64,000 bases of DNA from a virus (taxonomy: Duplodnaviria; Caudoviricetes). The notes below the pieces were generated by a model. It had not been told where the DNA came from. It made no database searches and worked only from the letters and a program-made list of their open reading frames with translations. Position numbers and translations under genes: made by a program. The stretch lies in the IMG/VR virus record IMGVR_UViG_3300034061_006011, one strand, 5' to 3'. Shown here piece after piece: positions 23,969 to 57,481 of the stretch (position 1 is its first letter; every line of letters begins with the position of its first letter).

Positions 23969-24129
23969 CTTGATACTCCATTGGTTTGAAAGCAAGCCAT
24001 TTGCTTTCGTGGATGTATTGTATCAGGTATTTGGTTTAGTGTCAATGTTTTTTTTTGGTATTATGTTTGCATAAAAAAACCCCCTTGGGTGTTATCCAAG
24101 GGGGTTGATATGGTTGGTGTTGATATGTG

Positions 24130-24831
24130 TTATTCTTGTTCTTGTTTAAGTTGTTGTGAGTTATATTGTGCCCAGAGGAGTGGGCAATTGGTTTTAATCC
24201 AATTTTGTACTCTTGCGATTTCATCAAGACGATTGTGCCAATGTGATTTCATATAATCATTATCTTGATCGAAGGTATGTCTTCCTCTGGCATATCTTTC
24301 TGCACGTTGTTCTCCTGAGTCATGGTTCTCCATTTCGGAGTATGCATTATTGATCTGATCTTCGAGGTACTTGATGAAGTTTAGATTAACTTCAATCTCT
24401 CCGCACTTCCTTAGAAGTCTGAGTGTGGCATCTTCGAGCAACTTCCTTTCCTTTTCATTCTTAAGAAGAACGAAGTCAACCATTTGCATTAGTACAGCAC
24501 GTCCGTCAATTTCGTGGTCGTTAGCCTCATCGAACTTTTCCTTCAGACTTTCAAAGTCTGTAATTTCTTGAAGATAAGCAATAATCTCAGGGACTTCGTT
24601 GCTGTTGTGGAAACGGAGTCCTCGGCTGAGACTTTTGATGACATCTTCGATGTTTGCTTCTTTTGTAATTGTTCTACAAGAGAAGTTCCCACTTTCTGGA
24701 TCACCGTAATCATAATCTTCTACGATGAAGATTTGATGTTGAAATTTATCCTTAATCCTTTGAATTTCCTTGTTGATTGTCTCTTGATGGATATTGCGCT
24801 CTTCGATAGTCATTTCAGGCATATTAGGCAT
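24130..24831 (-). CDS. Hypothetical protein
   Basis: 233 aa; own promoter, hairpin, SD and terminator. Confidence 0.7.
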   Translation of the reverse strand: MPNMPEMTIEERNIHQETINKEIQRIKDKFQHQIFIVEDYDYGDPESGNFSCRTITKEANIEDVIKSLSRGLRFHNSNEVPEIIAYLQEITDFESLKEKFDEANDHEIDGRAVLMQMVDFVLLKNEKERKLLEDATLRLLRKCGEIEVNLNFIKYLEDQINNAYSEMENHDSGEQRAERYARGRHTFDQDNDYMKSHWHNRLDEIARVQNWIKTNCPLLWAQYNSQQLKQEQE

Positions 24832-25004
24832 CTTGATACTCCTTTGGGTTACGAGAGCAAGCTGTTTGCTTTCGTGAGTGCATTGTAACAGGTATTTGGT
24901 TTGGTGTCAATGTTTTTTTTTGTTTTTTTTGGTGTTTGTATTTGCATAAAAAAACCCCCTTGGGTGTTATCCAAGGGGGTTGATATGGTTGGTGTTGATA
25001 TGTG

Positions 25005-25232
25005 TTATTCTTGTTTGAATAGGTCTTTGAAATGATCTTTGAATTTATCAAAGTCTTCCTGAGAGAGACTTGATTCCCAATATTGTCTATTGGGATTTTC
25101 CATTGTTTCTTCTACTTCTTCGACAAAATTTATGTCTTTTAGAAGTTTGCTTATAGCAAAGTTTTCTTTATCGAGATCAGTGATTTTGTTTTCATTCATG
25201 TATTGAATGAATTCTTCTTTCGTCCATTCCAT
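25005..25232 (-). CDS. Hypothetical acidic protein
   Basis: Start moved to MEWTKEE. Confidence 0.65.
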   Translation of the reverse strand: MEWTKEEFIQYMNENKITDLDKENFAISKLLKDINFVEEVEETMENPNRQYWESSLSQEDFDKFKDHFKDLFKQE

Positions 25233-25754
25233 CTTGATACTCCATTGGTATGAAAGCAATCCATTTGCTTTCGTGGATGTATTGTATCAGGTATTTGGTT
25301 TAGTGTCAATGTTTGTTTTTCATTTCGTTAAACTTTTGGTTTATAGAATTAGTTAGTTCTCTTTTGATTGCCATAATTTCCGTATGTGTTGCATTCTTAA
25401 GATGCTCTTTGAGCATGATAAGCAGCTTGTCGATGTGGCTTTGTATTTGGATAAGTTTAATATCCTGTTCAAGTGAATAAGGCATGGGCGATCCTCCTGA
25501 TATGAAAGAGTTGATTAGAAAAGTTTCTGTTCATACTTTCCATTCTATATTCTAACCTATTTTCTCTTGTTGTGTCAATACCTCTTATTTTGGCTTATAG
25601 CTCATTTATTTCTTTCCTTGGGACTTCGGGTGATTATTAGAAGATAATCGTTTCTAGGTGGCGTTATGTAAAACTGTGAATGGGTTTATGTGATTGCATA
25701 AAAAAAACCCACACTGGTTTTTGCCAGTGTGGGCTTATGGTTTATTAAATTCGA

Positions 25755-26735
25755 TTAGTTAGCGACTTGGACGGCTAGGTCTAACGCCCGTTTGTTCATA
25801 TTAGCTGATTGACCGAACCAGAGGGAGGTGTATCGGTTATCAGGGTTTCGTCCGGCGTTGTGAGAGAGGTGTTCGGTGACTGCGTTGTAAGCAGACCACC
25901 AAGTACCTTCAGCGAGGTCAGATCCTACGCCGACATAGGCGAGGTCGGTGATTTCTTTGACACGGTTGAAGGAGCGGGTTGACATTTCGCCATCGGTATT
26001 GACATCAACGTCAAGGACTTTGATGACATATTCGACGAGATCCTTGTGGTTAACGATTCTGCTTTTGGCGAGGAATCGGTATTGTTCCATGGTGGCTTGG
26101 AACTCAGAGTTTGCGAGAACCATAATTTCTCGAACTTTGTCGAGAACTTCGGTTTGTCGTTTGTGGTGCCGAATACGGAGGAGTTTAGATTCCGAATCGG
26201 ATTTAGCTTGAGCTAATGTATTAGCACAAACTACACGGACTGGGGTGAAACCTGCACGGGTGGATTGAGTCCCGTCGAATGAAGTGGAAAGAAGGATATA
26301 GCGTTTAATCGCATCACCTTTAACGACTTCGGATTCTTCTTCATTAACTTTGCACATAGCAAAGATAACCCTACCTCCTTTGAGGACACCGGCGGTTTCA
26401 AAAGTAGCTAGACCTGAGTCAACAACAGGTTGAAACCATTGAAGAGCTTCACTTGGTTGAATTGGTTCCCATTGTGGACCAACTGTGCCGAGGTAAGCTT
26501 GATCGACATCACGGAGAACGCCGAATGAATCTTCGGTTGGTGTAAATTCTCCGTTTTCGTCTTTGCGGTAGAGAGGGGATTTGTAAACTCCCCAATCCAT
26601 GTTTGCGGCTTTGAGGAAGGACAGATAATTCTTAGTATCATCTCCTTCTACTTTCTGACCGAGTGAGTGCCAACCGGGTTGACCGGCGAAGGCGAAAGAA
26701 GCGACATTATTCCTGTTTTCGATATCGTGTGCCAC
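25755..26735 (-). CDS. DUF932/TIGR03299-family phage-plasmid protein
   Basis: PGWHSLG, FETAGVLKGG, STSFDG..STR..FTPVRVVCANTL, TWWSAYNAVTE, SLWFG; GTG start after GGAG. Confidence 0.8.
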   Translation of the reverse strand: MAHDIENRNNVASFAFAGQPGWHSLGQKVEGDDTKNYLSFLKAANMDWGVYKSPLYRKDENGEFTPTEDSFGVLRDVDQAYLGTVGPQWEPIQPSEALQWFQPVVDSGLATFETAGVLKGGRVIFAMCKVNEEESEVVKGDAIKRYILLSTSFDGTQSTRAGFTPVRVVCANTLAQAKSDSESKLLRIRHHKRQTEVLDKVREIMVLANSEFQATMEQYRFLAKSRIVNHKDLVEYVIKVLDVDVNTDGEMSTRSFNRVKEITDLAYVGVGSDLAEGTWWSAYNAVTEHLSHNAGRNPDNRYTSLWFGQSANMNKRALDLAVQVAN

Positions 26736-26857
26736 TGTCTGAATCTCCTTATAACTGTCGTTTCTGGGCGAAGTTGCCGTTGACGACAGGTGTATTGTAG
26801 CGTGTTTCGGTCGTGGTGTCAAGTGTTTTTTTTTATTTTTTTGGGGTTTGTGGTTGT

Positions 26858-27100
26858 TTAATTTTTTGGGAATTTTGGGGTAATTTCTGGTGAAACGTGG
26901 ATATCGTCCTTATCGTTGATGATATAGAACGATGCTGATATGGTCATTTTGTCTATGAAACCTTCTTCTTTTGTATAAACATTAACACGGAATCTGTTAT
27001 CGAATATATTGATTACATTTACATGGGAGAAGTTTGGTGGAGTTCCCAGTTGATCTAATACAAAGTCAGCGATTTCATTATTTTCTTCCTTGACCTTCAT
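26858..27100 (-). CDS. Hypothetical protein
   Basis: Start moved to MKVKEE; NIFDNRFRVNVY. Confidence 0.6.
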   Translation of the reverse strand: MKVKEENNEIADFVLDQLGTPPNFSHVNVINIFDNRFRVNVYTKEEGFIDKMTISASFYIINDKDDIHVSPEITPKFPKN

Positions 27101-27189
27101 GCTAATCTCCTTTTGATATGGCGAAGTTGCCATGGTGTAATTGTATCTTGTTAGGTGTTAATTGTCAATAGATAAAATCTGAAATAAAA

Positions 27190-27522
27190 TTATTTTAGAT
27201 TTGGGAAAATTCCATATTTTCTATCGCTGTGGATGGTAGCGGTGCCGTCATTTATAGCTTTCTGCATAATTTCTAGGCATTTATCTTTATCAAATTGTGG
27301 GTAATGGTGATATGGGTCAACTAGAATAGATTCTAGTGTAGTTTTCATTTCTATAAGTTCTTCGTAGCGGATATAGTCATCTTGGGACTGGAAAGCTTCC
27401 ATGAGAGCAATTCTTCTGATTGCTAGGGTATTTTCATGGAATGTGAAGTCAGTGTATCCCCAACCGTTTTTAGGAATCCAAGTTCTTAGACCTGTGGGGA
27501 TGCTTTTATACTTTGTGGTCAT
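27190..27522 (-). CDS. Hypothetical protein
   Basis: Start moved to MTTKYK. Confidence 0.6.
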   Translation of the reverse strand: MTTKYKSIPTGLRTWIPKNGWGYTDFTFHENTLAIRRIALMEAFQSQDDYIRYEELIEMKTTLESILVDPYHHYPQFDKDKCLEIMQKAINDGTATIHSDRKYGIFPNLK

Positions 27523-27778
27523 TCTATAACTCCTTTTATATGGCGAAGTTGCCATGTGTTTATTGTATCGTGTTTATTTTTGTTTGTCAATAGGAAAAAA
27601 AACCCCAGTGATTTTGGTCACTGGGGTTTTGGGTTTTATTGTTCTTTTATAATTTTGGCGAGTTTAGCTGATCTGGTATTTTGTCGTTTTGTTTTTTTGT
27701 TATTATGGATACCTGCACCTGAGAGGTGTGGTTTATGTCCTGTTGATATGTTGAGGGTATCAATTTTACCTATGATCT

Positions 27779-28108: not shown

Positions 28109-28187
28109 TGTGATACTCCTAATTGGTTATCAGCAATCCGTTTGCTGATAAGGGTATTGTAGCGCAGATTAGAGAGTTTGTCAATGT

Positions 28188-29575: not shown

Positions 29576-29635
29576 TGAAAGCAATCCGTTTACTGATAAG
29601 GGTATTGTAGCGCAGATTAGAGAGTTTGTCAATGT

Positions 29636-30744: not shown

Positions 30745-30829
30745 CTTGATACTCCTTTGGGATTACGAGAGCAATCCATTTGCTTTCGTGAGTGTATTGT
30801 AACAGATCTTTTATGATTTGTCAAGGGAA

Positions 30830-31009: not shown

Positions 31010-31010
31010 A

Positions 31011-31211: not shown

Positions 31212-31265
31212 CTTATTCTCCTTAGTGCTTGCCAGCAGTTGTTGCTGGCAAGCGTGTTATAGGGA

Positions 31266-31472: not shown

Positions 31473-31599
31473 TTTTCTCTCCTTGTGTTTATCAGCAACA
31501 GTTGCTGATAAGTGTATTGTAACAGGGGTTAGGGGTTATTGTCAATAGTAAAAACCTAATACTCATGTTTTTTGTGCATAGGTATTAGGAAAGTATAAA

Positions 31600-31791
31600 T
31601 TATACTTGGTCAAGTCCTGCCGAGGAGCTTAATCGTTCCCTTAATTCAATAACCTCATTTTCGTGAATCGAACTATCCTCAAACACATACTCATCATCCT
31701 CACCATACAAATAATCATCAACATTAGAACTCAAGACGCTTAAGGCGAATTGAATAATCCTGTACTCTTTATCACTCAGAGTAATATTCAT
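31600..31791 (-). CDS. Hypothetical acidic protein
   Basis: Start moved to MNITLS. Confidence 0.6.
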   Translation of the reverse strand: MNITLSDKEYRIIQFALSVLSSNVDDYLYGEDDEYVFEDSSIHENEVIELRERLSSSAGLDQV

Positions 31792-31871
31792 GACACACTC
31801 CTTAGTGCTTGCCAGCAGTTGTTGCTGGCAAGCGTATTGTAACATATCGACGTTGATATGTCAAGTTTTGG

Positions 31872-32180: not shown

Positions 32181-32320
32181 GTCTGATTCTCCTTATTGTT
32201 TATCAGCAACTGTTGCTGATAAGTGTATTGTAACAGGGGTTAGGGGTTATTGTCAATAGTAAAAGCCTAATACCCATGTTTTTTGTGCATGGGTATTAGG
32301 AAAGTATAAATGGATATGTT

Positions 32321-32632: not shown

Positions 32633-32715
32633 GTCTGATTCTCCTTATTGTTTATCAGCAATCCATTTGCTGACGGATGTATTGTAACAGGGGTTAGGGG
32701 TTATTGTCAAGGGGA

Positions 32716-32946: not shown

Positions 32947-33082
32947 TTCATTACTCTCCTTGTTGTTTGTCAGCAAGCCATTTGCTGACGAATGTATTGT
33001 ATCATATCGCTGTTGATATGTCAAGTGATAAAAACCTAATACCCATGTTTTTTAGGCATGGGTATTAGGAAAGTATAATACT

Positions 33083-33517
33083 TCAGGCATCGCTGTCATA
33101 GTGTCCATTATCATCGGGATAAACATAATAATCAAAATCTGGTAATTCTCTCTCCTTTATTCTCTTTTCATAATGGTCAAATATTTTTTGTCCTATTTCA
33201 TTGGGGACCGGAATTTCATAATCGTCCTTAAACCTAATTACTACATTCTTGAGATACCTTTCGTCGTCACTGCATTCGGGGTTGCAGTCTTCTGGTTCTC
33301 CATAGATCCGTGCAGGTTCATAATATCCACTGCACATATATTCTATTGTTAAATCAAACTCTAAATTACCAACTAATGGTTTTAGATATTTATTTAACCA
33401 AATTGGTAAAAGTTCTCGTTCTATTTCTACAATATCTCCTCCGTGTGGGTCTGATCCACATTGTAATACCAGAAAATCTGGTATTTTATTCCAACTGACA
33501 GTTCTGGATCTGTTCAT
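33083..33517 (-). CDS. Hypothetical acidic protein
   Basis: Start moved to MNRSRT. Confidence 0.6.
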   Translation of the reverse strand: MNRSRTVSWNKIPDFLVLQCGSDPHGGDIVEIERELLPIWLNKYLKPLVGNLEFDLTIEYMCSGYYEPARIYGEPEDCNPECSDDERYLKNVVIRFKDDYEIPVPNEIGQKIFDHYEKRIKERELPDFDYYVYPDDNGHYDSDA

Positions 33518-33518: not shown

Positions 33519-34037
33519 TCACACACTCCTTTTGATTTTGGCACCAGTCAAGTTGGCACCAGTCAAGTCAATGTCACTGTTGACACCAGTTAAGTCCAAG
33601 TTTGCATTAGTCAAATTTGCACCATTTAAGTTAGTAAACCTAAAGTAGGCACCAGTCAATTCGGCACCTCTTAGGTTGCAATTTGACAAGTCGGCTTTAC
33701 CTAAAACAGTGTCACTCAAGTCTGCATTAGTCAAATTTGCACCATTTAAATTAGCAAAACTCAAGTTTGCATTAGTCAAATTGGCACTTCTTAGGTTGCA
33801 ATTTGACAAGTTGGCACCAGTTAAGTTGGCACCAACCAAATCAGCATAACTCAAATTAGCGTTACTCAAATCAGCATCAAACAAATTGGCACCAGTCAAT
33901 TTGGTAAAACTCAAGTTAGCATTACGCAAATCAGCAAACTTCAAATTTTCATATGTCAGGTCAGACCTGTCTAAACTTTCATAATGTGTCTGGTTGACGT
34001 AGATGACATCACCATTAATGTTCTTAATCTCGATCAT
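33519..34037 (-). CDS. Pentapeptide repeat protein
   Basis: More than 25 A(D/N)LxX pentapeptides. Confidence 0.9.
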   Translation of the reverse strand: MIEIKNINGDVIYVNQTHYESLDRSDLTYENLKFADLRNANLSFTKLTGANLFDADLSNANLSYADLVGANLTGANLSNCNLRSANLTNANLSFANLNGANLTNADLSDTVLGKADLSNCNLRGAELTGAYFRFTNLNGANLTNANLDLTGVNSDIDLTGANLTGAKIKRSV

Positions 34038-34152
34038 TTCACACTCTCCTTTGGGTAAAACATGAAAAAAAGTATCTGGATTAGGGGAAGAAACCTAATA
34101 CCCATGTTTTTTATGCATGGGTATTAGGAATTCCTAAATGGATATGTGGATA

Positions 34153-34440: not shown

Positions 34441-34498
34441 AAACTTACTCCTTTGTGTTTGCCAACAAACCATTTGCTGACTCATGTATTGTAGGGGG

Positions 34499-34828
34499 TT
34501 AGGGGTTATTGCCAAAAATATTGTAACCTAATACCCATGTTTTTTGTGCATGGTTGTCACTTCTTGTAAGCTTGCGCTTACAAACGGCACAAGTGTAGTC
34601 ATGGTCCTCATATGCAGGATGATGCTCATCACCACCCCAACCATCGATTCCAAGCGGATCACCGTTATAAGGTTTAAGTTCTTCGTCATAGAAGTGAGGA
34701 TCGGACTTCAAATGTTTGTAACACATCCTACAGACATCATTTGTGCTGGGTCCACTCCCATGTGGGTTATCATCAGGACTTTTGTACCATTCATCCACAT
34801 TTGAACCCATATTATAAATGCGAGGCAT
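34499..34828 (-). CDS. Copy 2 of the triplet, stop codon lost by deletion
   Basis: Near-identical core; reads into the terminator and next promoter. Confidence 0.65.
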   Translation of the reverse strand: MPRIYNMGSNVDEWYKSPDDNPHGSGPSTNDVCRMCYKHLKSDPHFYDEELKPYNGDPLGIDGWGGDEHHPAYEDHDYTCAVCKRKLTRSDNHAQKTWVLGYNIFGNNP

Positions 34829-34970
34829 AAACTTACTCCTTTGTGTTTGCCAACAAACCATTTGCTGACTCATGTATTGTAGGGGGTTAGGGGTTATTGT
34901 CAAGAGGGAAACCTAATACCCATGTTTTTTGTGCATGGGTATTAGGAATTCCTAAATGGATATGTGGATA

Positions 34971-35448: not shown

Positions 35449-35603
35449 ATCAAATACTCCTTAATAATAAAGCTTTAGTGCCCAATCGATTGCCAGCAAA
35501 CCATTTGCTGACAAATGTATTATAGGGGGTTAGGGGTCGTGGTGTCAAGTGATAAAAACCTAATAATCATGTTTTTTGTGCATGGGTATTAGGAAATCCT
35601 AAA

Positions 35604-36236
35604 TCACACTTGTTGTTGTGTAAGTCTTTCGATCATAATGTCGGTAATTTCTTTTACTAATATTTTTACAAATTCTTTTGATCTCATTATATCTTCTGCA
35701 ACAGCAAAAGTTGGTATTTCTGCTGCAATATCTTTAGAAGACAATCCTGCTACGATATCTTCTATAGAGATCTCTGCTGCGATATCAGCAAAAGATAATC
35801 CTTCTACAATGTCTTCTGTAGAGAATTCTGCTGCAATATCAGAAACACAGAATTTATCTGCGATATCTGAAGCAGAGAATTGTCCTGCTATTTTTTCTAC
35901 CATATCATCATTTTCGCTGATATCAGATGCAAGTTCAGCTAAAAAATCTGAGTTAGATAATTTTTCTGCAATTTTTTCAGCGATATCATCTTCGCTGAAA
36001 TTAGATGCAATTTCCGATGTGTCAATATGATTTGCCAACTTTTTAATATTAACATATGGAGCGACATCAGCCGCAGAGAATTTTTCTGCTATTTTTTCTG
36101 CTATTACCTCTTCTGAAATGACAATTTGATTAGCTAAATTATTGATATTCAATGCTTCTGCCAATTTGGCATAATCAATTTCTGGTGTTGTTACTGTTAC
36201 ATAAGAAGCAATTTTCTTAAAAATCCAATTAAACAT
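35604..36236 (-). CDS. Highly acidic short-repeat protein
   Basis: Repeated (F/I)Sx(S/A)DIA(A/E)E units. Confidence 0.7.
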   Translation of the reverse strand: MFNWIFKKIASYVTVTTPEIDYAKLAEALNINNLANQIVISEEVIAEKIAEKFSAADVAPYVNIKKLANHIDTSEIASNFSEDDIAEKIAEKLSNSDFLAELASDISENDDMVEKIAGQFSASDIADKFCVSDIAAEFSTEDIVEGLSFADIAAEISIEDIVAGLSSKDIAAEIPTFAVAEDIMRSKEFVKILVKEITDIMIERLTQQQV

Positions 36237-36314
36237 TATAATTCTCCTTAATCTGTCGCTGTTGGCGAAGTTGCTTAGGCGACAGGTGTATTATAAATTG
36301 ATCTGATCGCTGTG

Positions 36315-36545: not shown

Positions 36546-36677
36546 AACATTCTCCTTAATGTTCGGCGAAGTTGCCGAGAGTGCATTGTAACAGGTATTG
36601 GTTGGTATGTCAATAGAAAAACCCTGCCAAATCGGCAGGGTTTATGGTTTGCTAATTATACTTTAGCAAGAATGGAA

Positions 36678-37450: not shown

Positions 37451-37556
37451 GTCATTCTCCTTAATGTTCGGCGAAGTTGCCGAGAGTGTATTGTAACGGG
37501 TATTGGTTTTTGTGTCAATAGGAAACCCTAATTTTTTAGGGTTTATGGTTTGTCAA

Positions 37557-38909: not shown

Positions 38910-39055
38910 TGTTATACTCCATTGGTTAGGTGGTATACATTACCGCCATGGGTTTATTGTATATGGTTTTTGGTTCTATGTCAAGGTTTTTTTGTTGATG
39001 TGTAAAATTCCCCTATGTTTTGGCATAGGGGAATTATGTTTTTGCAAGAATGTTT

Positions 39056-39473: not shown

Positions 39474-39596
39474 ACTCCTTTTTTATTACAGCTAAGTGCT
39501 GTACAAGGATTATATGCGATTTTTATGTTTATGTCAAGGTTTTTTGTATTGTGTTAATATATATGTCAACATAATAATTCACTTTTAAGGAGCATT

Positions 39597-41188: not shown

Positions 41189-41743
41189 TTATACCGAAAG
41201 ATCCCTAAAGACTGCTATTAGTTTTAACAAGGATTCACTTTCTAATTGAATCCTCATATCATTACTGTTGGGTCCATTATACTCAAGTTCCTTGTCATAG
41301 TCAAGGAACATTTTTTTGGATTCTGGCAAATAGATTCTTTCTTGCAGAGATAATTTACTTAATGCTTCCCGAAATGTTTCAATTTCCCGATCATTTCTCT
41401 TTTTATCTACTATAAACTGTTCAGGAGATTGGTCATCTTCAACTACAATAGTTGTTTCAAAGTCAAGAACATTTCTATGATATCGTTTCTTATGCATCCA
41501 TAAAGATCGGGCACCTTTCATTTGCCAAGCAGCATGACCGGAGAAAGATCCTTTAGTTGGATCATAAGTGGATGCAGCAACGACCAAGCTCATCATAAGC
41601 TCTTGCCGATATCCTTCTTCATCACGAAAATAAACACCTTTTGGAGTTCTTTTAAGGAACCATTCTACCAATGCAATATTATCTTCTACCAACTTCCTTT
41701 GAGTATTAGTCAAAGGAGAAACTTCTTTTTTTTGTTTAGCCAT
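41189..41743 (-). CDS. Sigma-70-like factor (clear region 2, degenerate region 4)
   Basis: LVEDNIALV...QELMMSLVVAASTYDPTKGSFSGHA; perfect TTGACA-17-TATAAT upstream. Confidence 0.7.
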   Translation of the reverse strand: MAKQKKEVSPLTNTQRKLVEDNIALVEWFLKRTPKGVYFRDEEGYRQELMMSLVVAASTYDPTKGSFSGHAAWQMKGARSLWMHKKRYHRNVLDFETTIVVEDDQSPEQFIVDKKRNDREIETFREALSKLSLQERIYLPESKKMFLDYDKELEYNGPNSNDMRIQLESESLLKLIAVFRDLSV

Positions 41744-41913: not shown

Positions 41914-42570
41914 TTATTCTTCAAATTGGTCCCTTAGCCTTTCTACGCATTTTTTTGTTATCTGTTGAATGCGTTGTCGTGTAACTCCAAGTTCATCAGC
42001 AATACTTTGAAAACTTTTTTCATTAAAATAATGGTCTATGACTATTTGTCTGTGATGAATAGGAAGAACATTTAGGTTAATATAAAACACAACTTTCTCT
42101 TCTTGTGGTTGCCTTAAAGTTGAATGTTTTGATTTGCTAATTACTTTATCGTTAATTGTAATTAGTTGATAATTATCTTTCCTTCTTCTATTTTTTACAA
42201 AATAGATTTCATAAATCCTTCTAAAGAAAGATGTATAGAAGTATGTCATGAACAAGACTTCACCGGGGATGAAGTATTTCTGGCAGCTACAATAGACATA
42301 TAAAGCAATATTTTTAGCTTCCTCTAAATCTAATTTAATTTTATATTTTTCTTTGAATTTGCTGGCTAATTTTCTGGAGAAGTATGTTGTCATTTTGATA
42401 ATATCTTCTTTAGGAAATTCAATATTTTTAATATCATTGTCTATATTTCTGCGATTTGCTTCATTTTGAGCAATACGCAGAGAATACTTTTTATTTTCTC
42501 TTCCTATCTTTATGTCTACACAATCATTTGTTGTATAGACATATCCATCCTTGGTTTTAGTGTACCACAT
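41914..42570 (-). CDS. Sigma-70-like factor (clear region 4)
   Basis: LPIHHRQIVIDHYFNEKSFQSIADELGVTRQRIQQI. Confidence 0.75.
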   Translation of the reverse strand: MWYTKTKDGYVYTTNDCVDIKIGRENKKYSLRIAQNEANRRNIDNDIKNIEFPKEDIIKMTTYFSRKLASKFKEKYKIKLDLEEAKNIALYVYCSCQKYFIPGEVLFMTYFYTSFFRRIYEIYFVKNRRRKDNYQLITINDKVISKSKHSTLRQPQEEKVVFYINLNVLPIHHRQIVIDHYFNEKSFQSIADELGVTRQRIQQITKKCVERLRDQFEE

Positions 42571-43570: not shown

Positions 43571-45001
43571 ATGAAAAACTTTTATGATTTTTACAAGTTG
43601 TTATCAGAGTCATTTCAACAAAACGATGAGTTTTTGAGTTTTATATTGAATGCTGTTGAAAAAAAGAAGGAAGAATTAGGTAATAACAGTTACATGGATG
43701 CGATAACTAAGCTTAATAGAGAAATTAGAGAGCCGCTAACAAACTTTACAGTAAATGATTATGGGGATTTGATTAGGTTTTTGTATTTCGTTTATGGAGA
43801 CATGGTAAAAGGTGAAGATGATAGCAGTTTTAGACGACAAGTAACATGCATTGGTTATTTTTTCTCACTTGCTGTTACAGATGATGTTCTTCAAAAAAGT
43901 GATATTGTAAGAGTTATAGTAATAAACAACTGCGCTAATCCTAGTATGCCAGATTTTATAAAAGATTTTAAACAATTTGCCTCAAGTCATGGATATAATT
44001 TTGGTTCTAATTGGATTAATCTTTATCGATCTTTAGCGAGCAGATCTGAAATAATTTTTGATGGTTTTACAAATTTATTAACTGACAATAATATGGAACA
44101 ATATGCAAGGTTTTTAATCGACCAAGCAAGTGCATCAGTAGAGCTTCCTGATAATCACAGAATCTTACATAGGGTGACAAGAGAAAACCCAAAAAGAAAA
44201 CATTGGACTAAAAAAGTAAGTCGTTATATGAACCCAGAATTTGTCAAATTAATTGTACCATTAATTCCAGAAAACTTATTTTCTTTACAGCAGGTACAGA
44301 TGGCTGGAAGTGGAATTGCACTTGGACCACATGGTCCAGCGTATGATAACGATGATTTTAGTGAAGAACAGCATGGAAGCATTAAACAACAAATGTTAAA
44401 ATATGACAATGTAAAATTCGGGGAAAATCCTGTTCGTGATGAAATGGTAATACTAGATTTGGCAGCACACATTCTTGATGAGACAGACAACACGGAATTG
44501 TTTGATGGAGGAGAAAACTCAATTGGTGTTAGTTCAATCATCAAAAAGCTTTTTTTTGAAATTACTGACGATCAGGAAGAAGAAGCTATAAGAACGCAAA
44601 AATTACCTCTTTCAAGAACAGAAATAGCTGTGCTTAACTTTTTCTTTAAAGGTCTTAGAAATGCAGTAGTTGAAAAAGTTTTTCCACTCAGTTTGGCACT
44701 TACTCTGTATTTAATTGATGTAAAAGCTGGTTCACGAAAAAAACTTAGTCGAATGGAATTTGAACTTGCTCAAGCAATAAAAGCAAGAAAAGAAAGACTA
44801 GGTATAGATGATTCAGAAGATCATGATTTAGATTTTGAATTCTATCAACACATGGCAGCATTAATGCTTGAAAGTAAAACTTTCCCTTATTTTACTGTCA
44901 GAGGTGTTATTGAACAAATAAGACATCATGAGATGATGACAAAATTTCTTAAAAAATTAGTCAATGAATTAAAAAAAGAATATGGATTAAGTGGATTTTA
45001 A
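43571..45001 (+). CDS. Hypothetical protein with CTS-like start
   Basis: TATAAATA 6 nt upstream; MKNFYDFYKLLSE. Confidence 0.7.
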   Translation: MKNFYDFYKLLSESFQQNDEFLSFILNAVEKKKEELGNNSYMDAITKLNREIREPLTNFTVNDYGDLIRFLYFVYGDMVKGEDDSSFRRQVTCIGYFFSLAVTDDVLQKSDIVRVIVINNCANPSMPDFIKDFKQFASSHGYNFGSNWINLYRSLASRSEIIFDGFTNLLTDNNMEQYARFLIDQASASVELPDNHRILHRVTRENPKRKHWTKKVSRYMNPEFVKLIVPLIPENLFSLQQVQMAGSGIALGPHGPAYDNDDFSEEQHGSIKQQMLKYDNVKFGENPVRDEMVILDLAAHILDETDNTELFDGGENSIGVSSIIKKLFFEITDDQEEEAIRTQKLPLSRTEIAVLNFFFKGLRNAVVEKVFPLSLALTLYLIDVKAGSRKKLSRMEFELAQAIKARKERLGIDDSEDHDLDFEFYQHMAALMLESKTFPYFTVRGVIEQIRHHEMMTKFLKKLVNELKKEYGLSGF

Positions 45002-48038: not shown

Positions 48039-48047
48039 GAGATACTC

Positions 48048-50171: not shown

Positions 50172-50207
50172 TATAAACTCCTTTAAAAACACCAGAACAA
50201 TGGACAG

Positions 50208-50281
50208 TACCCCCAGTTGGATTCAAACCAACGACCTACGGTTTAGAAAACCGTTGCTCTGTTCAACTGAGCTATGAGGGC
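50208..50281 (-). tRNA. trnR: tRNA-Arg(TCT), no encoded CCA
   Basis: Acceptor GCCCTCA/TGGGGGT; anticodon arm ACGGT-TTTCTAA-ACCGT; T-loop TTTGAAT (variant). Confidence 0.88.
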
Positions 50282-50345
50282 ATATTGTGTGGACAATTTG
50301 TTTCACTTGTCCACACAAGTATTATAGCAAGTCTGAACCAATTTG

Positions 50346-51322: not shown

Positions 51323-53560
51323 TCAAGTCATCTTGCCTTCTGCATAGTATTCGACAATTTTCTTTGTCCTGTTTGCTTCGTCCATAAATATTGTTGGGTA
51401 AGACTCAATCATGTTTTTGAAATTATTATAAAATTCTTTTAATTCTCCTGAGAATTGTTCGATGATTGCAAGGAATTTTTGTTGATTACAATTTGCCATG
51501 GTTGATCTAAAATGATTTATTGTAAATATACAGTCAAACGCAACGCTTGAAGATAAAAAATTAGATTCAATAAAATCAATTATTGGATTTAATTTTGGCA
51601 AACTTTTAGCAAAAATTTCAAAAGACTTAAAATTATTAATTATATAATTAAAACATATATTTAGTTTTAGTCCTCTTATTAAATCATCACAATATTTATT
51701 TAAAAAATAATCATTTTCTGAATTTAGTTTATCTAATTTCCATTCTTCGGCAATAGTCTTAAGACACAAATAATTGATTCTTTTGCTGATTGATTCTGGA
51801 TAATCTTCCATGTATTTTTCTGTTGTATTAATCATTAATGTTTGGAATGAAATAAATTTAACATGATTTTCTTTTGTGTACTTCCTCATGAAGTCTCTGC
51901 TTTTCTTAGTGTTTTTAATTAAGAGAATTTTAGATGGAAGTTCATACTTTTTTGTTACGTCTTCATCCATGCGTATAAATGATGTTCTGATCAGTAGATC
52001 TGACAGATTAATTCTGGAATGATCGTTATCACGAAGATATATTCCTTGTGGTGATGAGAAAACCATACTGTCATATGGAATAAAATAAATGTAATGGTCT
52101 TGATGCAAACACTGTTCAAAAGCATCTGTTTCTTCTTTATCATCAACTTCCATGACATATTTTAATTTATAATCATAAAAATATGTGCTGAATTCTTTAA
52201 CAGACTTTTTAATTGTTTTGATAGATTTCTTTTGAAGACCTACTTGGGAGCATCTAATTACATTAGATCCATCAATCTTATTATTATCTGTTAAAATGAA
52301 TTCACATTCTGATTTTATAACTAATGCGGTGAATGAATATAAATTATTGTTTTTCTGATGACGACTTACCCAAGATCTCAATGCTTCCTGTGATGCTTTA
52401 GTATCATTAATCATAAAAACCAAAGCATCTTCACTTACATCTGCGCCGATGTTATAAGGAGTTTTTGTATGTAACTTTTCTTTTACATTTGCACTATATC
52501 TGGAAGCTTTAAAATATGTTCCAATCTCAATTGAGACTGGATAATCAATTATAAGTTTGATGTCTCTAGTGGAAGACAAAGGTTCACCACGCCAGTAAAA
52601 ATTACTTGCGTTAGCATTCATATCATCAAAAATATTTTCTTCACTAAATTTATTTTTAAATTTAATAAATTCAATTTGCGCTTTCATTTTGCTTTCATAT
52701 TTGTTGATAGTTTTCTGCATATCATCAGTAAATTTCTGATTAACTTTTGCAATAAATTTACTGATAAAGTTTATAGTTTGTTCTGTGTAAGCTAATTCTT
52801 CTCTTGATGGTGTAACATCAACAGATCTTGGTGGCACATGATAACAAATGCCTCTGGATCTGTTTTGTGTTTGCTTAATTCCAACCTTGTTTGTGTCAAG
52901 TCTGTATCTGACATTACTCATTACGATCCATACACCGGGTGAATCTGTATTTTCCCAATTGTCATCAATTTTATGTTCTGGAGATTCACTAAAATAAGAT
53001 AATTTTGTATTAAGGTTTGGTCTGACATGGAAAAATTCATAAATATTTTTTGCTTTATTTTCCCAATCTTTTTGGATAAAGCTTTTTAATTGTACAATTA
53101 TTTCAAGTCCGCTTCTTTCTGTAGTTTCTTCTTTCTTTAAAAATATGATGCTAGGGATTCCTTCTTTCTTATAGCATTGAAATGAATATTTCAATCCATC
53201 AATATATGAATTGACAAAAAATTCATCTGAGATAGCGAATGGTGATTTGCATCCGAGACCGAAGGCTCCGGTGTATGCTTTGCTTGTTGTTTTGGTAGAT
53301 GAAAAGAAGACTGTGAACACATCTTCTATTTGTTCTAATTTTAGACCTAATCCGAAGTCCCTGATACGGAATTGTTTGTTTGTATTATTAGGAAGGTCTA
53401 CGTCGAATGGTATGTTTGCAACACCTGCTTCAACATGTGCATCAGCAGCGTTGCATGATAGTTCTCTAATTACTGCTGAAATCTTATCAGAATATAAGTT
53501 ACTGGCGAGGATCTCAAATGCTTTTGCACTTGATTCAATGCGAAAGTTAAGTTCTGACAT
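51323..53560 (-). CDS. rIIA: rIIA-like protein (Hsp90/GHKL ATPase N-terminus)
   Basis: LASNLYSDKISAVIRELSCNAADAH, RDFGLGL, STK...GAFGLGCKSPFA, DVTPSREEL. Confidence 0.85.
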   Translation of the reverse strand: MSELNFRIESSAKAFEILASNLYSDKISAVIRELSCNAADAHVEAGVANIPFDVDLPNNTNKQFRIRDFGLGLKLEQIEDVFTVFFSSTKTTSKAYTGAFGLGCKSPFAISDEFFVNSYIDGLKYSFQCYKKEGIPSIIFLKKEETTERSGLEIIVQLKSFIQKDWENKAKNIYEFFHVRPNLNTKLSYFSESPEHKIDDNWENTDSPGVWIVMSNVRYRLDTNKVGIKQTQNRSRGICYHVPPRSVDVTPSREELAYTEQTINFISKFIAKVNQKFTDDMQKTINKYESKMKAQIEFIKFKNKFSEENIFDDMNANASNFYWRGEPLSSTRDIKLIIDYPVSIEIGTYFKASRYSANVKEKLHTKTPYNIGADVSEDALVFMINDTKASQEALRSWVSRHQKNNNLYSFTALVIKSECEFILTDNNKIDGSNVIRCSQVGLQKKSIKTIKKSVKEFSTYFYDYKLKYVMEVDDKEETDAFEQCLHQDHYIYFIPYDSMVFSSPQGIYLRDNDHSRINLSDLLIRTSFIRMDEDVTKKYELPSKILLIKNTKKSRDFMRKYTKENHVKFISFQTLMINTTEKYMEDYPESISKRINYLCLKTIAEEWKLDKLNSENDYFLNKYCDDLIRGLKLNICFNYIINNFKSFEIFAKSLPKLNPIIDFIESNFLSSSVAFDCIFTINHFRSTMANCNQQKFLAIIEQFSGELKEFYNNFKNMIESYPTIFMDEANRTKKIVEYYAEGKMT

Positions 53561-53591
53561 CCTTGTCTCCTTGTATGGTTACTTGTTAAAT

Positions 53592-53664
53592 TAGGCGTGA
53601 CTGGATTCGAACCAGCACTGTAGACATTTTAAGTGTCTTGTCTCTGCCGTTGGACTACACGCCC
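53592..53664 (-). tRNA. trnL: tRNA-Leu(TAA) with short variable arm
   Basis: Acceptor GGGCGTG/CACGCCT, A73; AGACA-CTTAAAA-TGTCT; GGTTCGAATCC. Confidence 0.9.
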
Positions 53665-53705
53665 TGTACCACTACACTAAGTTAGCATTAATGTCAAAAT
53701 CTTTA

Positions 53706-53951
53706 TCAAACATTTGTTGATATTTTTGTATCAGAATTCAATTCAAGGAAATCTAAAATCTGTTGCATTTTTAGATTCTCAGGAAGTTTGTTTTTGAGAT
53801 CTAATTTTTCGCCAAGAAAGTATTGCAATTCAAGTTGATCTATACTATCAATACCAATTTGGGCTAATGTTTTATCAAGATTTTCATCAATAGAAAAATC
53901 ATCAATATAATCTTGCATCGTTGATACAACTATATCAGTAACAGTTTTCAT
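53706..53951 (-). CDS. Acyl carrier protein-like
   Basis: LAQIGIDSIDQLEL phosphopantetheine motif; 81 aa, acidic. Confidence 0.7.
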   Translation of the reverse strand: MKTVTDIVVSTMQDYIDDFSIDENLDKTLAQIGIDSIDQLELQYFLGEKLDLKNKLPENLKMQQILDFLELNSDTKISTNV

Positions 53952-54090
53952 ATCACACTCCTTTGTGGAAAACTAAAGATCTTATTCAAAAATGGTGGTG
54001 AGGTCTTTGGCAAGGTGCTGCGTTTCCCTCAAAGATTCCTCACCACCATGTACCAATTATGTCACAAAATACACATCTTGTCAAGCTTTT

Positions 54091-54294
54091 TCAATCAGTC
54101 ATGATTGGACATTGACTAAGAATTTTGTTTAACGAATCAAATTTATCTGTAATAAAGTCTTCGCCAAATTTTTCTTTATATTTGCACAAAGCATCTTCAT
54201 AGTTCAAATTTTCAGTCTTCAATCTAAAGCATACAGAAGAATACGTTTCTCTTAAGTCCTGCATCAGTTCTGAGATATCACTATAATGCTTCAT
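54091..54294 (-). CDS. Hypothetical protein
   Basis: GGAG-led. Confidence 0.55.
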   Translation of the reverse strand: MKHYSDISELMQDLRETYSSVCFRLKTENLNYEDALCKYKEKFGEDFITDKFDSLNKILSQCPIMTD

Positions 54295-54348
54295 GTTGTA
54301 CTCCTATGGAGATGTGGGAAGTTCGCTTCCCACATCTGTTAGTGAATA

Positions 54349-54741
54349 TCAATCCTTATTTTTCTGAAAACCAACAGCAGCAGTCTGAAGCTTCTTAGCA
54401 AAAGCAAACAGAGTGTTCACATAATGTGAATCTTTTGTAGCTTTTTTAAGACATGAAAAGATAGATTCACCTAAATCAAACGCATACCTTTTAGTCATGG
54501 TAATTTGATTTAGTTGATGGAATCTGAATACAGAGAAGTTGTCTGTATCATTGTAGAAATAAGCATCTTCTGATTGAACGCATTCTTTCATATCGTTCAG
54601 CAAGAGTTCATGTGATGATGCAATTAAAACATCTAGGTTGAGAACATTAGACAATTGATTAAAGAATTCTTCGCTTCCTTTAATAATTGTCACACCACGC
54701 CAGCCAGTAACATCAAAAACAACAGGTCCGTTAGTATTCAC
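54349..54741 (-). CDS. Hypothetical protein
   Basis: Coupled to the upstream gene. Confidence 0.55.
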   Translation of the reverse strand: MNTNGPVVFDVTGWRGVTIIKGSEEFFNQLSNVLNLDVLIASSHELLLNDMKECVQSEDAYFYNDTDNFSVFRFHQLNQITMTKRYAFDLGESIFSCLKKATKDSHYVNTLFAFAKKLQTAAVGFQKNKD

Positions 54742-54947
54742 GATTCAATCCTTTCACAAAGAACATAGCTAATTCCATAGCCAGTAATAGTTTTCATTTT
54801 GTGCTTGGTAGTTTCTTCGTTTGGGACCAAGCGAAAATATGGATGATATTGATTGCCGAATATCTGGATGTTTATGATTTTACATTTAACACCCAGATAT
54901 TCGACAAACATTCCTTCTCTGATCGAATGACTTTCAACTTGTGTCAT
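54738..54947 (-). CDS. Hypothetical SH3-like small protein
   Basis: IREGMFVEYLGVKCKIINI. Confidence 0.5.
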   Translation of the reverse strand: MTQVESHSIREGMFVEYLGVKCKIINIQIFGNQYHPYFRLVPNEETTKHKMKTITGYGISYVLCERIES

Positions 54948-54971
54948 TGTAATTACTCATTTAGCTTTTCC

Positions 54972-56429
54972 TTACTTGCCGAAGTCTTTAAATACTGTCT
55001 TAGCAATCACCTTGATCAAGTAGTTCTGGAAGTCTCTTGACCCATCATTAGCCTTTGTAATGTGGTGAGTAAGCTCCTCGATCACAGTATGGAGAAGCAT
55101 TTCGTTAAGACCCTTATCCATCATGTTGTTATAGGCAACCGTATCCTTGTCCCAGAAGCCAAACAGGATTGTGTTGTCTGTCTGATTGACATCAAATCCT
55201 TTCACAATTGGAGCTTGACGATCATTTGTCAGACCAAGAGATGCAAGCTTATCCCAGACAAGACTTGTAGCTGTAACAAAGTCTTCTGAAGGATCAGTAA
55301 TCTTCTTGCCATTCATTTCATCGGTTGTCAAGACATCAGTATCAGTCTTGATTCCCATGCTGCGGATGAATTCAAGATAACAATCAGGTGCAAGGACCGT
55401 CTTGTATCCTTTATCTTGGCAGAACCTAGCGGTCAGTTCGCCAGCTACGACTGTGTTTTCTCCGTAAAACTTGACCCAAGTATTCGTCCAAGTCTTCTTC
55501 CTTTCCTCAGTTTGATAACTGGAGAAGTAATAATTTGGGAAAGTGTGTTCCCAATACTTTTTGTTAACTGAGAAGGATGAAATGAGCTTCATCAGGCATC
55601 GTTCGTTTGCATATTCTGTAATATAACTAGCTGCCTTGCTCATTGCAGTCCATGTATCAACACTACGAGATTCATTCATGTTGATATCGTCAACATTGTA
55701 ATCAAACAATGCTTCTTCTTTGCCATTACTTTCACAGATAAGAACTCCACGACGATAGATCATTGATCCATTTTCAGTGGAAATATTCTTATAACGACGA
55801 GGAAACACAGAGTTTTCAAGCAGTTCAGGACTAGAAAAGTGCAAGAACCAACTATTGATGTTGTTGTAGAACTTTTGAACAGCATCAGTAAGAGGAATGA
55901 ATACTCTGACAGTTCCTGACTTGGCACGAACTTGATTCTCTTGCACGATTTCAATCACTACATCAGTGTGACTGAGATCTTGAATATAGCAAGCATCAAT
56001 TGCATTGCTAATGAATTCACGCATTGAGAATGAAATGTCGCTCCAATCCATTGAGCCGAAGGACAATGTGTGGTTAAGAATCTCCTTCTTCTTAACTGCT
56101 TTGCCATTATTGTCCTTGCCAGAGTGAGCAACGCCAACCTGATGTTGTGTATCAGTACCTGTTAAGCTATTCAAGTGAATAGGTTGGGTAAAGAATTCCA
56201 ACTTCTGGTTTTCGTTATAGATGATTGGATTGATATTTTGCCTAAGACAGAGAGCGATGGCATGATTACCACCAGAACCAAACTGTCCAATGATTCGCTT
56301 ATCTTCATTCTTATGTTCACGTTTGGTACTTGTTCCCCAAATTGTCCAAAATTCAGAGCTAATTGAGTTCTTAACTGGATTTTCAATTTTCAAATACAAC
56401 ATATCAATCTCCTTATTTGCAGTCGTCAT
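54972..56429 (-). CDS. GHKL-type ATPase with permuted motif order and C-terminal zincin-like segment
   Basis: GTSTK...IGQFGSG precedes MREFISNAIDA; HTVIEELTHH near the C-terminus. Confidence 0.7.
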   Translation of the reverse strand: MTTANKEIDMLYLKIENPVKNSISSEFWTIWGTSTKREHKNEDKRIIGQFGSGGNHAIALCLRQNINPIIYNENQKLEFFTQPIHLNSLTGTDTQHQVGVAHSGKDNNGKAVKKKEILNHTLSFGSMDWSDISFSMREFISNAIDACYIQDLSHTDVVIEIVQENQVRAKSGTVRVFIPLTDAVQKFYNNINSWFLHFSSPELLENSVFPRRYKNISTENGSMIYRRGVLICESNGKEEALFDYNVDDINMNESRSVDTWTAMSKAASYITEYANERCLMKLISSFSVNKKYWEHTFPNYYFSSYQTEERKKTWTNTWVKFYGENTVVAGELTARFCQDKGYKTVLAPDCYLEFIRSMGIKTDTDVLTTDEMNGKKITDPSEDFVTATSLVWDKLASLGLTNDRQAPIVKGFDVNQTDNTILFGFWDKDTVAYNNMMDKGLNEMLLHTVIEELTHHITKANDGSRDFQNYLIKVIAKTVFKDFGK

Positions 56430-56494
56430 TAGTAAACTGTCGTGAGTGACTGCCCTTCACGACAGGAGCATTGTAGCACAGATGGCAAAGCGTG

Positions 56495-57214
56495 TCAATG
56501 GTCGTTGTCAAGTTGTTTGGTCGTAACCCTTTTGATGCGAAAACCGGGAATGCTGTCGTCTTCAGTTTCTACTTGCACAAGATTTGGTTTATTTTTTGGC
56601 AAGTTTTGGTTTATTTTTGTTGACTCAGAAGTTTCTGGAAGAAATCTTGGTTTAGTATGAATAGGAATACATCCAGCACCTGATTGCTGAAGACATCTTC
56701 CTGCTACTTGTGTAGGTTTAACGGTTGCTTTGGTATTTTGAATTTTATTAGATTGAAAATACAATCTCCATAATTTTACTGAATCATCCTTTTGATTAGA
56801 TTCAGAATTTGGATAAGGTCCAAAATCTATTCCTGCGCTTCTATTTCTAGTTGTCGCAACATAAACTAATGATTCTCTTGCTGCTTGGCAGACAATTGGT
56901 TCTACATCTGTTGCAAGCAAATATACTACTTCATCTGGATTTCCTTTCATTCCGCAAGCAAAAGCTGCTGCTACTCTGTGTGTAGGATCTGAAGAAGTTG
57001 CTGCTGCTGTTAATATTTCTGTATTTGTCATGAGTGCTTTAGCCATATTTGTGGCATGAAGTCTCATCCCGATAATACTTTCTTGAGAATTTAGATAACT
57101 ATTTCTACTTGGCGAACAATGTCTACCATTGTCGCATCCAGCAGCTTGACACATATGTATCAAACCATTTTGAGAGAAAACAAGACACACGCTAACAAAA
57201 ACTAAACTGTTCAT
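56495..57214 (-). CDS. Exported HEAT-like protein of planctomycete type
   Basis: Signal-like N-terminus; RVAAAFACG...VCQAARESL...IDFGP. Confidence 0.5.
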   Translation of the reverse strand: MNSLVFVSVCLVFSQNGLIHMCQAAGCDNGRHCSPSRNSYLNSQESIIGMRLHATNMAKALMTNTEILTAAATSSDPTHRVAAAFACGMKGNPDEVVYLLATDVEPIVCQAARESLVYVATTRNRSAGIDFGPYPNSESNQKDDSVKLWRLYFQSNKIQNTKATVKPTQVAGRCLQQSGAGCIPIHTKPRFLPETSESTKINQNLPKNKPNLVQVETEDDSIPGFRIKRVTTKQLDNDH

Positions 57215-57265
57215 AATAATCCTCCTGAATGCATGTTATCATACATTCAGGAAAATGCAACATTT

Positions 57266-57481
57266 TTATGTTGTTGGATTTTCAACATTAAACAAACAAT
57301 TGTTCTTCAAATAAACTTCTTCACGATAAATTTTAACATTTCTAGATGCACAAATTCTAATTTTAGAACGTCCTTTGCATGATTCATCAAGATTGACAAT
57401 AATTTTTTCATTACCAATTTCAAGAATAAGACTTTCGCCTTCTTTGCGAGACAAAAGCAAACTGTTCCTGATACTCTTCAT
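57266..57481 (-). CDS. csrA: CsrA/RsmA-like translational regulator
   Basis: LLLSRKEGESL...KIRICASRNVKIYREEVY aligns with MLILTRRVGETL...VRIGVNAPKEVSVHREEIY. Confidence 0.75.
   Translation of the reverse strand: MKSIRNSLLLSRKEGESLILEIGNEKIIVNLDESCKGRSKIRICASRNVKIYREEVYLKNNCLFNVENPTT

Follow-up and report, generated by a model that had tools for sequence, protein, structure and literature searches.

Repeated early-promoter cassettes with 5′-terminal stem-loops, likely protectors of mRNA, in an uncultured lake phage

Introduction

The T4-type phages RB49, phi1, PST and nt-1 carry promoter-early stem-loop cassettes (PeSLs; PMC2839356, PMC4122927). Here we describe a comparable system in a 64,000-nucleotide (nt) stretch, hereafter the window, of an uncultured tailed phage (Duplodnaviria; Caudoviricetes; IMG/VR record IMGVR_UViG_3300034061_006011). 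On the minus strand of the window, between about 21.4 and 57.9 kb, early promoters are followed directly by hairpins, most of them belonging to a family with GCAA on the 5′ side, and the same region contains a gene for a homologue of the bacterial regulator CsrA. Like PeSLs, the units concerned are intergenic cassettes, about 100 bp long and repeated across an ORFan-rich early region, each with a sigma70 promoter, a stem-loop and a terminal Shine-Dalgarno sequence (SD) plus ATG, and they are likewise placed at the junctions of indels or replacements between related phages. In PeSLs, however, the stem-loop is a terminator or attenuator lying upstream of, or overlapping, the promoter, whereas here an upstream terminator-like hairpin is accompanied by a conserved GCAA hairpin downstream of the −10 element, lacking a U-tract and situated at the 5′ end of the transcript. 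A further difference is that homologous cassettes are common here to three lineages of differing size and G+C content.

Stem-loops at the 5′ end are also known to stabilise bacterial mRNAs, as in the ompA type (Emory et al. 1992, in PMC7509114). The leaders described below share with that type the small number of unpaired 5′ nucleotides, the conservation of structure over sequence and the short spacer before the SD. They differ in that about 29 promoters of one phage are involved, in being part of a mobile cassette and in the conservation of parts of the loop; a stabilising effect is, in addition, a prediction here.

The presence of a CsrA homologue invites comparison with repressors of translation. 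CsrA sites obtained by in-vitro selection (SELEX) are ANGGAN hexaloops on stems of at most 4 bp, and dual sites lie 10-63 nt apart (PMC7652899). With dual-site repression by CsrA or RsmE, as in glgC and hcnA (PMC7652899), our locus shares the protein family, the RNA-binding residues, a predicted dimer and four leaders with spaced GGAs, but here GGA is missing from most loops, stems are long, the pentaloops are closed by A-U and the protein is extended, with motifs peculiar to its clade. In T4, the GGAG of early SDs is cleaved by RegB, and RegA is a repressor that acts at ribosome-binding sites (PMC3014915). The early SDs of the window are also almost all GGAG, and a similar logic of early shut-off through ribosome-binding sites can be envisaged, but the candidate effector would be of the CsrA family and late genes are apparently leaderless; neither a RegA nor a RegB homologue is apparent in the window. 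Finally, csrA alleles have been found in 30 of 2517 phage genomes (PMC7366521), and gp28 of phage PTXU04 is a csrA described as ‘semi-fit’ (PMC11879866). Such genes are presumed to target host processes (PMC11879866, PMC7366521). The gene in the window resembles gp28 and the members of PHROG 9500 in being small, phage-encoded and of the CsrA family; it is set apart by its clade, at most 48% identical to any homologue outside it and with N- and C-terminal features of its own, and by its occurrence in a giant lake phage.

Hairpins at early promoters

From 21462 to 57905, the minus strand has 36 near-consensus sigma70 promoters of the form TTGACA-N16-18-TA(C/T)AAT. In the stretch from 21 to 40 kb there are 26 promoter sites matching 11 or 12 of the 12 consensus positions, and these lie on the minus strand without exception. 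When each predicted transcript was folded from the sixth base past the −10 to the SD, the first paired base of a hairpin fell 5-8 nt past the −10, roughly +1 to +3, in 29 of the 36. Judging from the spacing to the −10, transcription probably starts at the A that most promoters have 7 nt past it, which would leave a 5′ end of 0-2 unpaired nt. The first 32 nt have a mean minimum free energy of −7.7 kcal/mol, as against −2.9 kcal/mol for random 32-mers from the same strand (Mann-Whitney p = 3e-15), and a value of −6 or lower is reached by 75% of transcript starts and by 13% of the random 32-mers. The excess of folding is also significant for the 16 promoters with non-GCAA leaders alone (p = 1.3e-5). 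It is near certain that the hairpins exist and are structurally conserved.

The GCAA family comprises 20 promoter-linked copies, to which one promoterless copy (31227-31253) and one borderline copy (22452-22470) can be added, in agreement with a preliminary description of the window that had counted about 22 early leaders with such a hairpin just after the −10. Three sub-types can be distinguished: GCAA-AYGGN-UUGC with 11 copies, CAGCA-ACNNU-UGCUG with four, the promoterless one included, and GGC-AACUUC-GCC with six, two of which are nested within a longer stem. Stems of 8-10 bp and a pentaloop with A-U as its closing pair characterise the GCAA hairpins. Their loops read AUGGA three times (25252-25272, 30765-30789 and 32654-32674), ACGGA twice (one case being the broken chimera near 29577-29599), AUGGC twice, AUGGU three times and AACUUC six times, with ACAGC, ACAAC, CUG and CAG seen once each. 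The five copies with AUGGA or ACGGA given in the preliminary description are thus all present, one of them broken, while AUGGC and AUGGU together occur five times and not the six claimed. An intact loop GGA is found in only four of the 21 GCAA hairpins, namely the three with AUGGA and that at 28128-28150.

The stems are maintained by compensatory change among paralogues and orthologues. In an alignment of 14 copies, 89% of cells pair, compared with 77.5% in shuffles, and none of 500 shuffles reaches the observed value; all five stem pairs that had been named as covarying were recovered. Double changes are seen at five of the ten stem pairs of this alignment, and pairing falls to merely 21-53% if the 3′ partner is slid in a control.

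Following the minus-strand features by increasing coordinate, the hairpin at 23988-24008 (stem GAAAGCAA/UUGCUUUC, loop AUGGC) lies between promoter 24045-24017 and gene 23354-23968, and that at 24851-24875 (loop ACAGC, one A·C mismatch) between promoter 24910-24882 and gene 24130-24831. After the AUGGA hairpin at 25252-25272, the leader of the DUF932 gene (25755-26735) has a nested hairpin at 26756-26788 with an inner GGC-AACUUC-GCC, and two family-2 hairpins, both AUGGC-AACUUC-GCCAU, are predicted at 27118-27133 and 27540-27555. The fold at 28128-28150 pairs UAUCAGCAA with UUGCUGAUA around ACGGA, and the broken copy at 29577-29599 is a chimera in which a UAUCAG-type 5′ arm meets a UUGCUUUC-type 3′ arm around the same loop, with no SD downstream. 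The copy at 31227-31253, GCCAGCA-ACAAC-UGCUGGC, lies beyond the AUGGA hairpin at 30765-30789; it is a repeat copy that retains hairpin and SD and has lost its promoter. There follow UAUCAGCAA-CUG-UUGCUGAUA at 31490-31510, UGCCAGCA-ACAAC-UGCUGGCA at 31810-31830, UAUCAGCAA-CAG-UUGCUGAUA at 32201-32221, the AUGGA hairpin with a terminal G·U pair at 32654-32674 and an AUGGC hairpin at 32969-32989. Loop AUGGU is carried by 34461-34481, with two G·U pairs, by its duplicate at 34849-34869 and by 35491-35513, with one U·G pair. The series closes with a nested hairpin at 36254-36284 (inner GC-AACUUC-GC) and two family-2 hairpins, both UCGGC-AACUUC-GCCGA, at 36563-36578 and 37468-37483.

Equivalent hairpins of other sequence occupy the same position elsewhere on this strand. 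Four early leaders have unrelated 5′ hairpins (21426-21456, 21826-21846, 22452-22470, the borderline copy mentioned above, and 23198-23226), and two more non-GCAA examples are folded at 38929-38947 and 39487-39503. The precursor of tRNA-Arg(TCT) (tRNA 50207-50281, promoter 50349-50321) also starts with a hairpin, of 9-12 bp at 50288-50315 and with no SD, in which a G-C pair has changed to G·U in relatives. A single-sequence fold places a 5′ hairpin at 56438-56464 in the leader of a gene for a 239-aa protein, a neighbour of csrA; the leaders of this gene in the related contigs L005, L009 and L010 fold at the same position with different sequences, that of L005 with two G·U pairs. The leader of csrA itself has a 5′ hairpin at 57508-57524 whose loop, AUGUC, lacks GG. 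Seven orthologous csrA leaders fold at this position with five distinct stem sequences, and in some relatives this leader does contain GG (AGG, AAGG or GGG); single-sequence folds were relied on here, RNAalifold putting two of the sequences out of register. Two TAGAAT-type promoter-like sites on the minus strand of the parB island, in the region of 16025 and 16539, are likewise followed by an 11-bp G+C-rich hairpin (GAGGCGGCGCA...), which is unrelated to the GCAA family.

Several familiar identities for the GCAA hairpin were considered and set aside. No U-tract follows it, as would be expected of an intrinsic terminator or attenuator, and its stems are too short for an RNase III site. A lambda boxB/N-type nut site is not indicated, the loops not being GNRA-like and the sites numbering about 30. 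The resemblance of UUGCUUUC to a T4 MotA box concerns merely three or four copies, and a proper −10 does not then follow. Positions −2 and −1 are pyrimidines, which speaks against the promoter consensus for capping with nicotinamide adenine dinucleotide, and the leader holds no complement of the loop with which a pseudoknot could form.

Cassette architecture and recombination

The hairpin is one part of a repeated cassette of about 90-115 nt that consists of an upstream terminator-like hairpin, a sigma70 promoter, the 5′ hairpin, a short, unstructured A/C-rich spacer, a GGAG SD and the ATG. Repeat families of 45-137 nt (D5-D10, D14 and D15 among them) extend over the entire unit, beginning upstream of the −35 and ending at the ATG. 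Just upstream of early promoters on the minus strand, a terminator-like hairpin with a 13-bp stem and a T-run is repeated in seven copies (repeat D3; 31549-31608, 32260-32319, 33029-33088, 34088-34147, 34521-34580, 34906-34965 and 35553-35612), and a G+C-rich putative terminator in two (repeat D16; 24046-24140 and 24921-25015). The region holds 56 terminator-like sites, compared with 13.9 ± 3.3 in shuffles. Each small early gene is therefore flanked by a terminator-like hairpin, a promoter, a 5′ hairpin and an SD.

Comparison with the relative L071 (about 89% identity; taken from a 304-kb contig) placed 11-12 of 14 breakpoints of colinearity within cassettes, which cover roughly 15% of the compared region. 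Recombination at cassettes is also indicated by the chimeric copy near 29577-29599, by the promoterless copy at 31227-31253 and by a public contig in which 31217 is fused to 31798, with 580 bp deleted between two copies of the cassette.

Six promoter spacers on the minus strand contain a tandem heptamer, AACCCCT twice (31516-31545, 32227-32256, 32681-32710, 34488-34515, 34876-34903 and 35519-35548). One public contig has an extra heptamer unit at 31523, which would make that promoter spacer 7 nt longer.

Distribution in other phages

A megablast search with 8 kb of the window and a tblastn search with its CsrA gave zero matches, and thus no close relative, among 50,697 deposited phage records; a search of deposited phage records with rIIA found distant matches alone, all below 38% identity, and scans of IMG/VR with the single proteins CsrA and rIIA as queries found nothing. 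Near-identical DNA is nonetheless present in lake-water metagenomes of 19 studies. Two metatranscriptome runs contain a small share of the sequence, as sparse contigs that carry no information on start, end or strand and may reflect DNA carry-over, and no public RNA runs were listed for a 9.9-kb stretch of the window. Relatives of 35-42 kb in IMG/VR are rated only 7-10% complete, and the genome is therefore very large.

Early regions could be compared between four genomes, the window and relatives at 89%, 74% and 65% protein identity; the remainder of IMG/VR record G003 ends short of the GCAA region. GCAA hairpins lie at the same place in all three relatives. Across the four genomes AUGG is present in about 85% of family-1 loops, and the base after it is A in about nine, C in eight and U in 12. 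AUGGU predominates in one relative and AUGGC in another, as if the cassettes of a genome had been homogenised. Orthologous leaders also differ: the loop at 25252-25272 is AUGGA in the window and ACAGA in L071, that at 24851-24875 is ACAGC in the window and AUGGU in L071, and that at 30765-30789 is AUGGA in the window and AUGGU in L073. Because the base varies and orthologous leaders flip in this way, the A of the loop GGA is not under selection.

Scanning IMG/VR with the pattern of a family-2 hairpin behind TACAAT retrieved a second group of phages, with a G+C content of 0.43-0.49. In this group (L017-L036, L092 and other IMG/VR loci), the 12-nt family-2 core stands, identical, before homologues of DUF932 that share only 32-37% amino acid identity with the gene in the window. 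Several cassettes are found per genome, in the form TACAAT-nnACTC-A-C(R)GC-AAYNNC-GC(Y)G, and their stems covary (ACGGC/GCCGU with ACAGC/GCUGU) while the inner loop bases are free. Hairpins of the form TACAAT-CCACTC-ACAGCAA are present in a third group, with a G+C content of 0.52. About half of the 23 hits to the family-2 pattern represent chance or coding sequence, and a family-1 pattern, TACAAT-N5-12-GCAAAYGGNTTGC, gave 25 hits in IMG/VR that all lack a −35 or cassette context, that is, chance background.

The preliminary description had proposed that co-occurrence of hairpins and csrA be looked for across phages. No match to PF02599 was found in five genomes of the second and third groups, one of which is complete with terminal repeats (51.5 kb); the other four are an estimated 86%, 84%, 76% and 72% complete. 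Homologous cassettes are therefore present in two further lineages of phages without csrA, which argues against hairpins and csrA forming a pair. In the distant relative L015, seen as a 24-kb fragment only, few such promoters and no csrA were found.

The CsrA homologue

The csrA homologue already recognised in the preliminary description (57266-57481, minus strand; 71 aa) is real: it matches PF02599 with 35.9 bits, the cut-off being 27, residues 8-59 aligning with profile positions 2-50. It also matches PHROG 9500, ‘CsrA-like regulator’ (E = 8e-4), and shows weak direct matches to solved chains of CsrA and RsmE (E = 0.02-0.04). Residues L8, L10, R12, V49, I51, R53, E54/E55 and V56 align with L2, L4, R6, V40, V42, R44, E45/E46 and I47 of the Escherichia coli protein, so that the conserved arginine noted earlier is kept (R53 = R44), and L8, R12, A45, R53 and E55 are invariant among 19 CsrA homologues. 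An N-terminal extension had been noted too; it is seen, with 7 residues in the window and 7-10 in the clade, where it has the conserved form M(K/E)xI(K/R)(G/N)(S/T). In the same clade IR(I/V)CAS replaces IG(I/V)(D/N)AP, and a C-terminal motif EN(C)xF is conserved.

Modelled as a homodimer, the protein reaches an ipSAE of 0.74, with a best control of 0.00, and interleaves its strands through contacts β1-β4′ and β2-β5′. Three runs share at least 90% of contacts, with a partner pLDDT of at least 76. Of 30 proteins solved as one-chain pairs, 20 reached the mark applied, as did one of 23 solved as single chains, rough calibration counts given that the alignment was the author’s own, and the pass may reflect likeness to CsrA dimers already solved.

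The gene adjoins that of a 485-aa protein in all eight related contigs covering the site, at 50-99% identity. It is preceded on the minus strand by an early-type promoter, TTGACA-N17-TACCAT (57530-57558), and by an SD that is itself AAGGAG. csrA is thus a separate, conserved gene with an early-type promoter, for whose product binding and repression are predictions.

Early and late translation signals

The contrast drawn previously between early mRNAs with GGAG SDs and leaderless late mRNAs is matched by a real split in the sequence. GGA is found at most 20 nt upstream of the start in 69 of 79 early genes, and ANGGA in 49; almost all early SDs are GGAG. By comparison, in 13 genes presumed to be late the ATG is preceded at 4-6 nt by TAAATA and an SD is absent; ten of these genes lie on the plus strand within 1617-10879, and three more start at 43571 (plus), 60740 (minus) and 62696 (minus). 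GGA occurs between −3 and +30 in only one of the 13. Their products begin M-x-(x)-F-K-Q. The TAAATA sequence resembles the T4 late box, and its spacing would put the start of transcription at or beside the AUG, making these messages leaderless.

Two genes on the minus strand encode sigma-like proteins (41189-41743 and 41914-42570). One matches Sigma70 region 4 (E = 4e-11) and the other, of 184 aa, gives a weak match to region 2 (E = 0.005); both are candidate readers of the TAAATA late boxes.

Elsewhere in the window, an rIIA-like protein is encoded at 51323-53560 (minus strand), and Rfam at its gathering threshold finds two tRNAs and nothing else. The product of the early gene at 33519-34037 (minus strand) is a pentapeptide-repeat protein of 172 aa (E = 3e-40), and this fold occurs in DNA-mimic proteins. 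Between 45345 and 48530, also on the minus strand, lie about a dozen small open reading frames of 50-80 codons for Trp/Ser/Arg-rich peptides with repeated SWS and WSKSW motifs; they have similar N-termini, MI(L/F)K..N, and are 73-98% conserved in the relative L009.

Functional interpretation

The explanation that we favour, and consider somewhat probable, is that the hairpins are 5′-terminal stem-loops carried by mobile cassettes, that they are likely to protect the 5′ ends of mRNAs, and that the cassettes shuffle early ORFans. An early RNA would start with a stem-loop leaving 0-2 unpaired 5′ nt, and this structure would shield it from 5′-end-dependent decay of the RppH/RNase E or RNase J type, much as in ompA-type leaders. 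The repeated cassette would at the same time serve as a recombination site at which early ORFans are exchanged, as PeSLs do in T4-type phages. The stabilising function, taken by itself, appears on balance probable. If CsrA regulates phage messages at all, it would most likely do so through the A(N)GGA of early SDs and not through the hairpin loops.

Several points weigh against this explanation. The stabiliser role is argued by analogy. AUGG persists in family 1 across relatives whose outer stems differ, the loops of family 2 and of the second group keep their initial AA and final C, and the GC/AA junction of stem and loop is nearly invariant in three lineages; conservation of the loop beyond what a stabiliser needs hints at either a sequence-specific partner or gene conversion between cassettes. 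A 5′ hairpin on a tRNA precursor, removable by RNase P, is not obviously explained by the stabilisation of mRNA. The excess of G·U over A·C is also modest, with 5 and 4 internal pairs, respectively, within the window and 8 and 3 pairs of each type, on the transcribed strand, among the distinct stem variants of all genomes; pairing of the stems as RNA, specific to one strand, is supported, not proven. The persistence of AUGG, the GC/AA junction, the identical core before DUF932 genes and the tRNA hairpin would together be compatible with a sequence-specific partner or a function exerted in the course of transcription.

Such a partner could be an RNA-binding protein of host or phage, or an RNase, that reads the GC/AA junction or the AUGG or AA..C loop and acts in processing, antitermination or enhancement of translation. 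The near-invariance of the junction in three lineages while flanking pairs covary, the frequency of AUGG in family-1 loops of the four genomes and the 12-nt core shared before such divergent DUF932 genes speak for such a factor, but the cores could stay alike through gene conversion among cassettes, in the absence of selection, the inner loop bases of the second group vary freely (AAYNNC), ten early leaders use unrelated hairpins and a scan of 40 proteins of the window yielded no candidate; we think this reading doubtful. Still less credible, in our judgement very improbable, is that the inverted repeats act as DNA, as operators for a repressor of early genes or as recombination signals. Their position from +1 to about +25 of strong promoters is one where a bound protein would block transcription, and the cassettes are clearly recombination junctions. 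However, the outer half-sites differ between copies and are yet complementary, which points to pairing, not to a protein consensus, G·U-type pairs outnumber A·C-type pairs as just described, and unrelated sequences occupy the same position at other promoters.

The preliminary description had linked hairpins and CsrA directly: a dimer of the phage protein would bridge the GGA of a loop and the GGA of the SD and so silence early mRNAs. In four intact leaders an A(U/C)GGA loop does lie about 19 nt upstream of the SD GGA, inside the 10-63 nt range of dual sites (PMC7652899), the key RNA-binding residues are kept, a CsrA-like dimer could be modelled, and GG is common in family-1 loops and in the csrA leader of some relatives. 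Against this, 17 of the 21 GCAA hairpins and every one of the non-GCAA hairpins have no intact loop with GGA; neither within nor between genomes is the A of GGA constrained, the base after GG being free and flipping between orthologues; the 8-10 bp stems with pentaloops are unlike the short-stemmed hexaloops of high-affinity sites (PMC7652899); and a like hairpin, with no SD, begins a tRNA precursor, while related cassettes occur in phages that lack csrA. As a second CsrA site the loop is therefore hardly tenable, and bridging of this kind seems to us most improbable. A reduced form of the switch, in which CsrA binds the A(N)GGA of SDs alone to shut off early and host genes, the leaderless late mRNAs escape and the hairpins are uninvolved, is better placed, though we still think it unlikely. 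The distribution of GGA and ANGGA between early and late genes would suit it, as would the T4-late-like box 4-6 nt before the ATG of SD-less late genes, the retention of csrA, with its early-type promoter, in every contig covering the site, and the T4 precedent of shut-off via GGAG SDs by RegB and ribosome-binding sites by RegA (PMC3014915). On the other hand, a single SD site is usually a weak target for CsrA, csrA is itself led by an AAGGAG SD, the leaderless late starts are proposed from spacing alone, and the presumed targets of known phage csrA genes are host processes (PMC11879866, PMC7366521). A more ambitious version, which we regard as rather improbable, would have the extended, clade-specific CsrA effect a global shut-off on host and early SDs, AUGG loops perhaps adding affinity on some leaders, so that ribosomes pass to the GGA-free leaderless late mRNAs; if true, this would be a RegA/RegB-like switch made from a borrowed bacterial regulator.

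Conclusions

In this phage, one modular cassette organises about 30 early transcription units, and related cassettes are present in at least three lineages of lake phages. This widens the idea of mobile cassettes developed for PeSLs from terminator-promoter units to ones that, in addition, set the 5′ structure of the mRNA, and the cassettes can be seen as natural, compact ‘insulated’ expression parts. With early genes led by SDs, late genes that are apparently leaderless and a conserved phage CsrA, the system would also lend itself to a direct in-vitro test of the hypothesis of a simple translational switch.

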